Shown: positions 59,199 through 62,769 of the stretch, piece by piece
How positions within the stretch are numbered: the first letter of the stretch is position 1
How the letters are laid out: the number at the start of each line of letters is the position of its first letter
Sequence record: MW598459
Direction: 5' to 3' (one strand)
From: Escherichia phage vB_EcoM_RZ
Length of the DNA: 64,000 bases
Program-made: the position numbers and the translations under genes
Notes under the pieces: model-generated
What the model saw: the letters and a program-made list of their open reading frames with translations, nothing else
Databases searched by the model: none
Told to the model about the DNA's origin: nothing

Positions 59199-59945
59199 AT
59201 GATTTTATCCGGAAGAACTGTTGATGAACTCAATGAAAAAGTCCAGGCTGCCTTGGCTGATAATTGGTATTTGTTTGGTTCTACTATGGTGTTGCCGAAT
59301 ACCCCTACAGATAGCAAAGAGCGTTTTTTCCAAACTATGTCCAGCTCGGAAACTCAGATACCGGGTCCGCTTGGTCCCAAAGGAGAACCGGGTGTACCCG
59401 GACCAAAAGGAGACCCAGGTGGGGATGGAAAATCTTCTTATCAGATATGGCTTGACTTGGGAAATACAGGAACTGTTGATGATTTTTTAACTGATACAGC
59501 AGGAAAGAGGGAAAAATCCGAGGTGTTTTGGAGTGGTATAAACGTTCTATTAACTAATGGTACGACTTCAAACATAATTAGTGTTTTAAAGGGGATTCCA
59601 CCGACTGCAGGGACTCTATCTCCGTTTTTTAGAACCACTGATGATAAGTTGTGGCCATATAACCAAGACAGAAGCCTAATGTTTAAACTCAACCTTATTG
59701 GTAATTTTGCAGGAGCCTCGCAAGCTCGAAGTATAACATTAAATTTCGTTGGAACCAACGGAAACACTTATATACAGAATCGTCCGGAAAATGCTACAGA
59801 TATTTTGTCTTTTACAACGTTCTTTAGCATTGATAAAGATGGGGCAATGGCAACCAATGGTACAGCTATAACTGTTATGCCAAATGGCGGCAACTTTACA
59901 ATAACCTCCGCATTGTTAGTAGCCGAACAAACAGTGACTTCATAA
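59199..59945 (+). CDS. Collagen-like repeat protein on the plus strand (248 aa)
   Basis: SD AAAGGAGA before ATG 59199; Gly-X-Y run GPLGPKGEPGVPGPKGDPGGDG; Asn/Thr-rich C-terminal domain. Confidence 0.55.
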   Translation: MILSGRTVDELNEKVQAALADNWYLFGSTMVLPNTPTDSKERFFQTMSSSETQIPGPLGPKGEPGVPGPKGDPGGDGKSSYQIWLDLGNTGTVDDFLTDTAGKREKSEVFWSGINVLLTNGTTSNIISVLKGIPPTAGTLSPFFRTTDDKLWPYNQDRSLMFKLNLIGNFAGASQARSITLNFVGTNGNTYIQNRPENATDILSFTTFFSIDKDGAMATNGTAITVMPNGGNFTITSALLVAEQTVTS

Positions 59946-59968
59946 ACAAAAAAGGGCCATCCGGCCCT
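59946..59968 (-). terminator. Hairpin terminator between convergent genes
   Basis: A-run, GGGCC-ATCC-GGCCC hairpin; T-run on the minus strand. Confidence 0.5.
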
Positions 59969-60210
59969 TAGATTGCACTCCAAAAATTATGGAATCTTAT
60001 AGTATTGATAGCCCAGTTAACAAACCTGCGAGTTTGTTTGGGAGTTGGTTTACATATGTACTTATTGTTGATTCGTCTGCCAGTTTCCCGACAGACTGCT
60101 TCGAGATACCAGCGCCGACCTTTATTAGGTCTTCCGTATGATAAGAAGACCTTCATTTCTTCATTAACGATAATAGGAATTGTGGTTGTCAAGGTATACC
60201 TCTTCAACAA
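59968..60210 (-). CDS. Hypothetical basic protein (62 to 80 aa)
   Basis: ORF; track start overlaps the upstream gene, internal Met likely. Confidence 0.35.
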   Translation of the reverse strand: MLKRYTLTTTIPIIVNEEMKVFLSYGRPNKGRRWYLEAVCRETGRRINNKYICKPTPKQTRRFVNWAINTIRFHNFWSAI

Positions 60211-61174
60211 ACTTGTCCCAGAACTTCATGTCTACCTTATCAGGCATACCATTCTTAGCAGCCTGGATGGCCAGAACTTCAACTAAATCGACAGTATCTT
60301 CAAGAAGTTCTTGAACTTCTTTAAATGGTAATTCACCAGCTTTAATCAGCTTAATGATAGAGGCTTCACGCAATGGGAATACCAAGTCACCTGTTTGGTA
60401 GATTTCCATCAATTGATACCCTGCACGATAAGCATGGCTCAGTGCTTTCCAATCAATACCTTCGTTAGCTTCTGCTTTACGAGCACGTTCACCATATTCG
60501 GCGTCGAGTTTATTCAGAGATTGCTTGAGCTCGATTAATGACAGAGTAGTTTGGTACTTACGTCCGAGAACAGTATAGAACGTTTGTGGACCTGTTTTCT
60601 CATGGTTATGGAATACCCATTCACAGAACTCGTTTTCAGGGAGTCTGTGTTTGATATCTTCTACCTTAGTACGACGAAGTCTATCAGGGATTCCTTCTTG
60701 ATAATCGACCCACTGTTCAGGAATCTGGTTAACAATTGCCAGTACACCACGCAGTGCAGCCAATCGAGAACCTTTAACACCATATTTGGAAGCTTGCTTA
60801 CGGACGTACCCCAAATAGGCTTTCATGTTAGTTGTATAGAACCGCGAACGGTTGTCTTGAATAAACTTCCATACATCTGGTAAATCGGATTTGACAACCA
60901 GGTTAGCCGGGGTGTGAATCATGTCCAGAGCAACGGTTTCGCCTTCGGCTGCCAGTTTAAAGAAATATTTCAGGCTATAAAGTTCATGGTCAATATCGTC
61001 TTTTGTATTTTTGGTAGCCGTGTTATTCGTGTTCAGGTTTGTATGGTTCATCGCGGTTCCGAGCAGGATATCTCGCGGATGAGGAACAAAGATTTCTTTA
61101 AAATCAACATCAGATTCCGGAGTGCTTGTTCCATAAAGATGGCTACCGAAGTAGCCTTTCATAACTGTTCTCAT
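60164..61174 (-). CDS. Pol-beta superfamily nucleotidyltransferase-like protein (about 336 aa)
   Basis: N-terminal GSHLYGTSTPESDVDF fits the GS-x(9-13)-DxD NTase motif, with a downstream ALDMIH candidate third acidic residue; start trimmed to MRTVMKGYFGS. Confidence 0.5.
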   Translation of the reverse strand: MRTVMKGYFGSHLYGTSTPESDVDFKEIFVPHPRDILLGTAMNHTNLNTNNTATKNTKDDIDHELYSLKYFFKLAAEGETVALDMIHTPANLVVKSDLPDVWKFIQDNRSRFYTTNMKAYLGYVRKQASKYGVKGSRLAALRGVLAIVNQIPEQWVDYQEGIPDRLRRTKVEDIKHRLPENEFCEWVFHNHEKTGPQTFYTVLGRKYQTTLSLIELKQSLNKLDAEYGERARKAEANEGIDWKALSHAYRAGYQLMEIYQTGDLVFPLREASIIKLIKAGELPFKEVQELLEDTVDLVEVLAIQAAKNGMPDKVDMKFWDKFVEEVYLDNHNSYYR

Positions 61175-61623
61175 TTTTTGTCCTCGAAGTGGATTACAGG
61201 ACACATCTTAGATTTACGAGCTTTAATGTATTGAATAACGATGTTTTCTTTAGTTTCCTTTCCTTCACGTTTGGCTAGAATACGTTGCCATTCCTTTTCT
61301 TCTTTACGTAAATCATACCATGCGTGCAAATTCATCGCACCTAATGCCAAACCAATGGATAGCGCAATAATAAGAGCTATTGCAATCAACCCTAAAACAA
61401 ACCCTAGACTCAACAGAACAGGAGTACTTAATACAAAGAAATGCTCTAATACACCAGCTCCTGCAACAGTTAATCCAAAAAGCGTACTACCTGCAACAAC
61501 AGCACAAGCAAAACAAGCCCAAACCATTTTCCAGAAGTAAGCACACAAAGAGTGTGGTCGAGAATGACGGTCATAAAAACGGTCGTGTAATTTAACGTGC
61601 CAAGAGTTTGCATTGATAATCAT
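61171..61623 (-). CDS. Hypothetical membrane protein (150 aa)
   Basis: Two or three hydrophobic helices, basic C-terminus. Confidence 0.45.
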   Translation of the reverse strand: MIINANSWHVKLHDRFYDRHSRPHSLCAYFWKMVWACFACAVVAGSTLFGLTVAGAGVLEHFFVLSTPVLLSLGFVLGLIAIALIIALSIGLALGAMNLHAWYDLRKEEKEWQRILAKREGKETKENIVIQYIKARKSKMCPVIHFEDKK

Positions 61624-61633
61624 AATATTTTCC

Positions 61634-62194
61634 TTAAGAGTTCATAGTTGGGATAACAGAGTTCAGATAAGAGACTAAAACTTTTAGCTCGTCCTTAGTA
61701 AATACCACTTCATTAAAACCATCGTGTACTTGGGTAATACATAGTTGGTCACGACCATCATGCTGAACAACAGTCAGTTCAGTATTATAATTCAATTCCT
61801 CTTCGTCACCGTCAAAGGTTTCACTAGAGCGAATCACTGCATCTTGACCTGGGACTTTCCATTCAACTTCTGGCTTACATTCTTCCTGGAACAGTTTGAA
61901 AATACAATCAAAGAATTTATCAGAATCGCTAATGCTCAGACATTTTTCATCTGTTTCAATATTAAACCCACCATCGTGCTTATAAATGCGAGCACATACA
62001 TCATCGTTAATATCAAATACACCACTAAAACTACCACTAAGATATTCGTCTTTATCCAAAACCTTTAAATCATAAAGTGGTTTAATATCTTGGATAGTCA
62101 GTACGATTTTATCGTCTTCTTGACAAAGCTCAATTGCATTATTAACTACTTCAGCGGTCAGTTCGCCAAACAATTCAGTTGTTTCAATAATCAT
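61634..62194 (-). CDS. Hypothetical protein (186 aa)
   Basis: ORF in minus-strand array. Confidence 0.45.
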   Translation of the reverse strand: MIIETTELFGELTAEVVNNAIELCQEDDKIVLTIQDIKPLYDLKVLDKDEYLSGSFSGVFDINDDVCARIYKHDGGFNIETDEKCLSISDSDKFFDCIFKLFQEECKPEVEWKVPGQDAVIRSSETFDGDEEELNYNTELTVVQHDGRDQLCITQVHDGFNEVVFTKDELKVLVSYLNSVIPTMNS

Positions 62195-62511: not shown

Positions 62512-62769
62512 TCATCTCATGCTCCTGTGCCAACAATTTCTTGGTTCACGTTTAAAAATTTCATCATGCATTGATTGACAACCAACACAATATATCACAC
62601 CTTTAATCGCTTGTCTCCGCGCTTCAGGAATTTTTTCGTCGCAGTCAAAACAGAATTCAGCAGACTCCCTTTCAACTGCAACCTGTGCTCTCGCATGGGT
62701 GATAGCGGCCTGTACAACCGCTTCCATCTCTAACTGTTCAGCACCATCTTTTGCAAATCCAACAGCCAT
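62512..62769 (-). CDS. TraR/DksA-family C4 zinc-finger protein (85 aa)
   Basis: CFDCDEKIPEARRQAIKGVIYCVGCQ fits the TraR/DksA C4 finger pattern. Confidence 0.6.
   Translation of the reverse strand: MAVGFAKDGAEQLEMEAVVQAAITHARAQVAVERESAEFCFDCDEKIPEARRQAIKGVIYCVGCQSMHDEIFKREPRNCWHRSMR

Follow-up and report, generated by a model that had tools for sequence, protein, structure and literature searches.

Members of the RlaP family, the definition of which is credited to Burroughs and Aravind (PMC12776372), are predicted at the family level to replace nucleotides lost from RNA ends ahead of ligation. Two of these nucleotidyltransferases (NTases), PfRlaP and PaRlaP from Pseudomonas, combine an NTase domain and a helical domain with a closing helix at the C-terminus; they add 1-2 nucleoside monophosphates (NMPs) onto the 3'-OH of RNA and none onto DNA or protein, favour the broken end of a cleaved-tRNA mimic, perform best with Mn2+, and partly rescue the aminoacylation of a tRNA that lacks one anticodon-loop nucleotide (PMC12776372). 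The nrdC.11 gene of phage T4 has been catalogued since the T4 genome was annotated; in 2006, a comparative paper recognised the NTase by matching nrdC.11 orthologs with the nucleotidyltransferase domain COG3541 (PMC1524935), and a 2025 preprint by Carruthers, Fatma and Huang places T4 NrdC.11 in RlaP sequence cluster 5 (PMC12776372). Here, we analyse an NTase gene, together with the membrane-protein gene upstream of it, in a 64,000-nt stretch of DNA from Escherichia phage vB_EcoM_RZ (sequence record MW598459; in the following, the window). We find that this gene is almost certainly the ortholog of T4 nrdC.11 and encodes an RlaP-family NTase of the polymerase beta (Pol-beta) superfamily. Moreover, we consider it probable, at roughly 60%, that NrdC.11 adds nucleotides to broken RNA ends in tRNA repair.

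The gene is located on the minus strand at 60164..61174 and its product of 336 amino acids (aa), which starts MRTVMKGYFGSHLYGTSTPESDVDF, is 80% identical to T4 NrdC.11 over 336/336 aa without a gap (T4 locus NC_000866 55435-56445; NP_049709, which carries the RefSeq label "nucleotidyltransferase"). The first-pass annotation of the window, which was made from the sequence alone, had noted no comparable gene in T4, and this remark is overturned by the T4 protein. Full-length similarity and the position in the nrdC-mobD early region both place the gene in the T4 nrdC.11 orthologous group, and the deposited vB_EcoM_RZ protein is 100% identical to the one analysed here. PHROG 388 ("nucleotidyltransferase") matches the protein over its full length (5.8e-131), while the Pfam RlaP family (PF10127, "RNA repair pathway DNA polymerase beta family") matches residues 8-135, corresponding to model positions 25-143 of 249 only, with 49.4 bits against a gathering threshold of 23 (E 6.4e-13). 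The Pfam model is also matched by all 71 of the diverse homologues (33-81% identity) that we aligned to determine conservation. Consistent with this, hhalign to a profile of canonical short RlaP proteins gives a probability of 94.7% (E 5.7e-8), restricted to residues 6-133. Searches of the PDB by sequence, with the single protein and with the 71-sequence profile, returned only noise (E >= 0.19).

Relatives of nrdC.11 are present in at least 1511 phage records (tblastn), including those of Escherichia, Klebsiella, Aeromonas, Acinetobacter, Vibrio, and other phages, and when representatives of 50%-identity clusters were searched exhaustively, 3211 relatives were recovered, 837 of them below 1e-30, nearly all full length. 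The DNA of the region is 91-95% identical to that of Gaprivervirus- and Dhakavirus-type phages, with which it shares gene order. In the close relative SP18 (~89% nucleotide identity here), mobD.1, the membrane gene, and nrdC.11 follow each other in the same order as in the window, and nrdC.9, nrdC.8, and nrdC.6 come next. The gene is thus already known as the conserved Tevenvirinae gene nrdC.11, has been placed in RlaP by the literature, and has a function that is predicted only; identification as a conserved Tevenvirinae gene of known function, which had been named in advance as grounds for giving up the initial proposal, therefore applies for the most part. In GenBank and UniRef, many nrdC.11 orthologs are named "thioredoxin", evidently from the nrdC prefix, and one is named "HNH homing endonuclease"; both names are annotation errors.

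A GAGGA Shine-Dalgarno sequence at 61185-61181, 6 nt ahead of the ATG and within the 3' end of the preceding gene, favours this start over the GTG at 61204 that opens the longer version given by the ORF finder (open reading frame, ORF). As had been proposed, the ORF contains a GS-x(9-13)-DxD signature, which has the form GS-x10-DxD (G10 S11 ... D22 x D24; 61103..61147, minus strand). Because the six-frame translation of the window contains two such motifs compared with 0.88 +/- 0.86 in shuffled sequence, the motif alone is within chance, and the NTase call rests on homology (Pfam RlaP and PHROG 388) together with the fold. The protein has no long hydrophobic segment, and its Kyte-Doolittle hydropathy reaches a maximum of 0.91 (19-residue window). 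The 5' coding region also contains a hairpin whose 6-bp stem is perfect and whose tetraloop is C(UUCG)G (GGCUAC-UUCG-GUAGCC; 61141-61156, minus strand). This hairpin begins 19 nt past the ATG and coincides with codons 7-12 (GYFGSH). It is kept via synonymous codons in the window and at three other loci (L003, L005, and L008) and is not found in SP18, T4, RB51, or KP1079; it could affect mRNA stability or translation.

The NTase fold proposed at the outset is borne out not only by the two family matches but also by an AlphaFold2 model of high confidence (predicted local distance difference test score 92.4, predicted template modelling score 0.80). In this model, an alpha/beta NTase core extends to approximately residue 135 and is followed by a beta-rich insert (approximately residues 154-208) and by a helical bundle that continues to the C-terminus. 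As defines the Pol-beta superfamily, the alpha/beta NTase fold carries an hG[GS] element (G10-S11) and then, on the strand that comes next, [DE]x[DE]; D24 lies within, and D22 borders, the strand formed by residues 23-30. Thirteen residues are invariant in the 71 sequences (G10, S11, G15, S21, D22, D24, Y131, R230, D241, K243, H247, R250, and P267), and nearly invariant ones include K26, N56, D60, D62, D84, K130, and K134.

The N-terminal core (residues 1-135; 60770..61174, minus strand) is the sole part that can be aligned to canonical RlaP. For the third acidic residue of the active site, the first-pass annotation had pointed to the aspartate in ALDMIH, that is D84 (codon at 60923..60925, minus strand). 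This residue is indeed nearly invariant; however, it is located in the helix formed by residues 80-85 and pairs with the invariant E94 of canonical RlaP, and we consider it a conserved acidic residue that is probably not the third catalytic aspartate. By contrast, D62 (codon at 60989..60991, minus strand), which is likewise nearly invariant, is on the strand formed by residues 61-67 and aligns with the third aspartate of canonical RlaP, the invariant D72. Because of this strand placement and alignment, D62 is the likelier of the two, and it is probably the third catalytic carboxylate of the NTase. The beta-rich insert (60551..60715, minus strand; modelled strands 154-159, 162-168, 184-191, 195-202, and 205-208) is specific to the nrdC.11 subfamily, and hhalign aligned no counterpart of it in canonical RlaP. 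Similarly, the C-terminal helical bundle (residues 209-336; 60167..60550, minus strand), which the model shows as a helical domain with a final long helix, carries invariant YGxRA and DWKAxSHAxRA motifs and falls outside the hhalign match, which does not continue past ~130 residues. From these alignments, the ~200 C-terminal residues, which the first-pass annotation had left unplaced, are probably an elaboration specific to the subfamily, and the basic residues of the two motifs plausibly line a cleft for RNA or nucleoside triphosphate (NTP).

The acceptor of the nucleotide might in principle not be RNA: the NTase could nucleotidylylate a protein or a small molecule, in the manner of kanamycin nucleotidyltransferase (KNTase)/ANT or of MntA-like AMPylases. 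The structural matches on which this would build are low (Z <=7.4, with Foldseek E values no better than 0.01), and for the NCBIfam MntA model, a span of only 18 residues scores 15.2 bits where 60 are required. Moreover, RlaPs that were tested left E. coli protein and DNA unlabelled (PMC12776372), and both the membership in the RlaP sequence family and the RNA-repair gene context described below speak against such an acceptor, which we therefore regard as improbable. CD-NTases of CBASS systems were found neither in PADLOC nor in Pfam nor among the top 50-60 structural matches. A defence or anti-defence module was also considered and rejected: PADLOC matches were sub-threshold and spanned 17 residues, and the MntA score was far under its cutoff. 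Among the functions first put forward for the gene, RNA repair is the best supported; a nucleotide-signalling or CD-NTase role finds no support in PADLOC or NCBIfam.

Scanning one genome per prokaryotic species, we collected 80 cellular loci with full-length nrdC.11-type homologues of 32-52% identity (hosts include Desulfobacterales, Nitrospirota, Alphaproteobacteria, and archaeal metagenome-assembled genomes (MAGs)) and called, clustered, and identified the neighbouring ORFs using Pfam and tblastn. In 15 of these loci, RNA-repair genes lie within 6 kb of the nrdC.11-type gene, hereafter the long RlaP. Within this distance, RtcB occurs at 10 loci, Hen1 at four, Pnkp at three, RtcA at two, Ro60/TROVE at two to three, T4-type Rnl1 at two, and a bacterial Pnkp-ligase at one. 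One locus (L047) reads Ro60 - RtcB - RtcA - long RlaP - short RlaP - Hen1; in another (L088), long RlaP, T4-type Rnl1, and Pnkp overlap in this order; a third (L018) has the order long RlaP, Pnkp, and Rnl1; and in a fourth (L089), the long RlaP stands alongside Hen1 and a Pnkp-ligase. In cellular genomes and MAGs, the long RlaP subfamily is embedded in RNA-repair operons of three different types. By our estimate, which is not a computed value, chance would bring a single-copy gene such as rtcB to within 6 kb of an arbitrary gene at far fewer than 1% of loci, and RNA-repair neighbours would accordingly be strongly enriched. T4 nrdC.10 was considered as a MoxR-type ATPase tied to repair operons and was discarded, since its P-loop matches were sub-threshold and it does not resemble the AAA_5 gene of L047.

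A canonical short RlaP (~255 aa), which matches the full-length Pfam RlaP model (5.9e-81), is encoded near the long RlaP in 25 of the 80 loci, mostly directly downstream and often overlapping (among them L025, L027, L031, L032, L038, L044, L047, L057, L067, L075, L080, L085, L086, and L094). This co-occurrence argues that the two types are not redundant, and the gene arrangement suggests that the long and short paralogues work together. T4-like phages have the long form only.

Addition of nucleotides to RNA 3' ends could also serve host takeover, either by blocking tRNA charging (MenT-like), by tailing host RNAs for decay, or by rebuilding CCA on phage tRNAs. In favour of such a role, the gene is part of an early accessory region rich in host-takeover genes, and RlaPs place NMPs onto many RNAs in vitro, including full-length tRNA and rRNA, with little NTP specificity (PMC12776372). 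We nevertheless consider it unlikely, as the cellular homologues reside in operons with RtcB, RtcA, Hen1, Pnkp, Rnl1, or Ro60 and not in toxin-antitoxin pairs, and as no antitoxin-like partner is conserved. According to classical work, T4 tRNAs without an encoded CCA need the host Cca enzyme, arguing against a CCA-adding activity of the phage.

We suggest, rather, that NrdC.11 acts in tRNA repair. It would add one or a few nucleotides, untemplated, to the 3'-OH of a broken RNA, the most plausible substrate being the 5' half of a tRNA that was cut in the anticodon loop. NrdC.11 would come in between removal of the 2',3'-cyclic phosphate by Pnkp and sealing by Rnl1, so that the phage's healing and sealing enzymes, Pnkp (pseT) and RNA ligase 1 (rnlA), could rebuild the full-length tRNA; related genomes encode both of them at other positions. 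5'-phosphate ligases of the Rnl1 class are compatible with a 3'-OH product (PMC12776372). The addition step would matter only when a host anticodon nuclease, for example RloC, cuts the tRNA and also removes a nucleotide. SP18 encodes both pseT and rnlA, ~90 kb from nrdC.11.

Several observations weigh against a role in tRNA repair. nrdC.11 of T4-like phages is not beside rnlA or pseT, and no repair gene neighbours it inside the window. The characterised RlaPs belong to cluster 1a and not to cluster 5, and only the N-terminal 130 residues of NrdC.11 align to them, while the C-terminal 200 with the beta insert do not; substrate and product of NrdC.11 could therefore differ from theirs. A viable, genome-reduced T4 has lost the nrdC.11-mobD.3 segment (PMC9825161), arguing that any role of nrdC.11 is conditional, and our literature search found no experimental study of NrdC.11 itself. 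Finally, several of the short contigs that show the link to Rnl1 and Pnkp may have come from viruses and been binned into MAGs; the operonic link to Rnl1 and Pnkp is informative whether these contigs are viral or cellular.

In a more specific version of the repair model, which we put forward tentatively and with less confidence than tRNA repair as such, the long RlaP would join Pnkp and Rnl1 as the missing third enzyme in classical T4 tRNA repair and re-add the nucleotide or nucleotides excised by anticodon nucleases of the RloC kind; the beta insert and the helical bundle would recognise the broken anticodon loop, and the bacterial form would act with the short RlaP encoded directly downstream. 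If it is true that NrdC.11 restores nucleotides excised by RloC-type nucleases, then this would complete the textbook T4 Pnkp/Rnl1 repair pathway, and it would explain why at least 1500 sequenced phages retain a gene that is dispensable under laboratory conditions.

The gene upstream of nrdC.11 (61171..61623, minus strand) encodes a membrane protein of 150 aa that matches PHROG 944 (1.2e-55). It has one continuous hydrophobic block at approximately residues 25-102, where Kyte-Doolittle values reach 2.9 (19-residue window) and which has room for two to three spans. As the first-pass annotation had noted, the TGA of this gene overlaps the ATG of the NTase gene in an ATGA (61171..61174), which we read from the sequence. 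The membrane family is confined to T4-like phages, comprises 104 clusters in a large protein collection, and has no Pfam family; a scan of viral contigs with the membrane protein recovered close relatives only. Between genera in which the NTase remains ~80% identical, the membrane homologues are only ~31-35% identical. Three features recur in divergent members: M-I-N-x-N-S-W-H at the N-terminus, a Cys/Tyr pair ahead of the hydrophobic block, and KARKxKxCPxI at the C-terminus. The strictly conserved termini are M-x-I-N-x-x-x-W-H and K-x4-K-x-C-P, with a poorly conserved hydrophobic core between them, suggesting that the soluble ends rather than the membrane spans carry the function of the protein. 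A sub-threshold "Oleosin" match in Pfam (20.6 bits, cutoff 25) is due to hydrophobic composition and not to homology, and the name "oleosin", which at least one database record gives to the membrane protein, is an annotation error.

The adjacency of the two genes had raised the possibility of a module, and two genes of this kind could form a two-component system in which a nucleotide signal gates the membrane protein (Hailong- or CBASS-like), or an anti-defence or superinfection-exclusion pair. We compared the arrangement in 11 phage lineages. The membrane gene adjoins nrdC.11 in Dhakavirus, Gaprivervirus, and many Tequatrovirus genomes. In T4, however, the HNH homing endonuclease gene mobD occupies the slot of the membrane gene, and both the membrane gene and RB32ORF097c are missing; in VR26, mobD separates the membrane gene from nrdC.11; and in Klebsiella phage KP1079, the membrane homologue is 1.2 kb upstream of the NTase gene, from which two intervening genes divide it. 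Citrobacter phage Miller, Vibrio phage VH7D, and Aeromonas phage 44RR2.8t encode unrelated, non-hydrophobic proteins upstream of the NTase, while Aeromonas phage AP1 and a metagenomic viral contig (L010) have a membrane homologue and no NTase within 3-4 kb. The same 4-nt ATGA overlap joins nrdC.11 to unrelated upstream genes in Miller, VH7D, and KP1079 (in the latter, to the intervening gene), indicating that it reflects the usual tight packing of T4-type early genes; a 4-nt overlap in the early region of a T4-like phage is no evidence for a functional pair. No conserved membrane neighbour accompanies any of the 80 cellular homologues, and the match to HalB of the Hailong system is to the generic NTase core, while PADLOC gave no credible match. 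Based on these observations, we reject an obligate pair of NTase and membrane protein and consider a two-component module of any of these kinds very improbable. The membrane gene is an independent accessory gene that lies in one early transcription unit with the NTase gene, and overlaps it by 4 nt, in one lineage only. The free-standing HNH endonuclease gene mobD has its insertion site where the membrane gene meets nrdC.11 (1737-2501 in the VR26 locus L097, 12430-13209 in the T4 locus L002, and 61171-61174 in the window).

Downstream of nrdC.11, a G+C-rich hairpin with T-runs on both sides (59952..59969), identified by a terminator scan and from the sequence, resembles a bidirectional terminator; it closes the minus-strand unit as well as a convergent plus-strand gene. 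The latter (59199-59945) encodes a 248-aa protein on the strand opposite to all surrounding early genes, fills the slot of T4 nrdC.10, and combines a collagen-like Gly-X-Y stretch with a tail-needle-knob domain of the Sf6 type at the C-terminus (Pfam Phage_tail_NK, 2.6e-32; PHROG 1030). In the distantly related phage Miller, a "tail needle knob" gene has the same convergent arrangement ~0.8 kb downstream of nrdC.11. Upstream of the membrane gene, the product of an ORF at 61634-62194 (minus strand) is mobD.1/y05I-like and matches Pfam T4_y05I_N (2e-42) and T4_y05I_C (2.3e-18; "putative transcription factor"). In the relative EAWsc9, the annotation for the equivalent of the ORF at 62512-62769 (minus strand) reads DksA C4-type zinc-finger protein. 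No tRNA genes were found in the window.

Among described two-gene systems, Hailong is an obligate HalA/HalB defence operon of bacteria, whereas the phage NTase and membrane gene are often apart or alone; HalB, a protein of 217 aa that makes protein-primed oligo-dA, is 13% identical to the NTase, in the core only. KNTase/ANT(4') and MNT-HEPN pairs share with the NTase a core that is followed by a helical bundle; however, structural scores are weak and there is no sequence-family match. The closest counterpart is T4 NrdC.11 (a Y05H-type protein of the nrdC-mobD region), which has the same length, the same catalytic motifs, and the same slot downstream of mobD.1. The T4 locus differs from the window in having mobD instead of the membrane gene directly upstream, and nrdC.10 downstream where the window has the convergent gene with the tail-needle-knob domain. 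Canonical RlaP proteins of ~255 aa span the whole Pfam model, while those of the nrdC.11 type (~320-336 aa) match positions 25-143 only and have the extra beta-rich insert. Both types have in common the core GS, DxD, and a probable third Asp, a conserved acidic residue in the following helix, an NTase domain that precedes a helical domain, and an association with RNA ligase operons.

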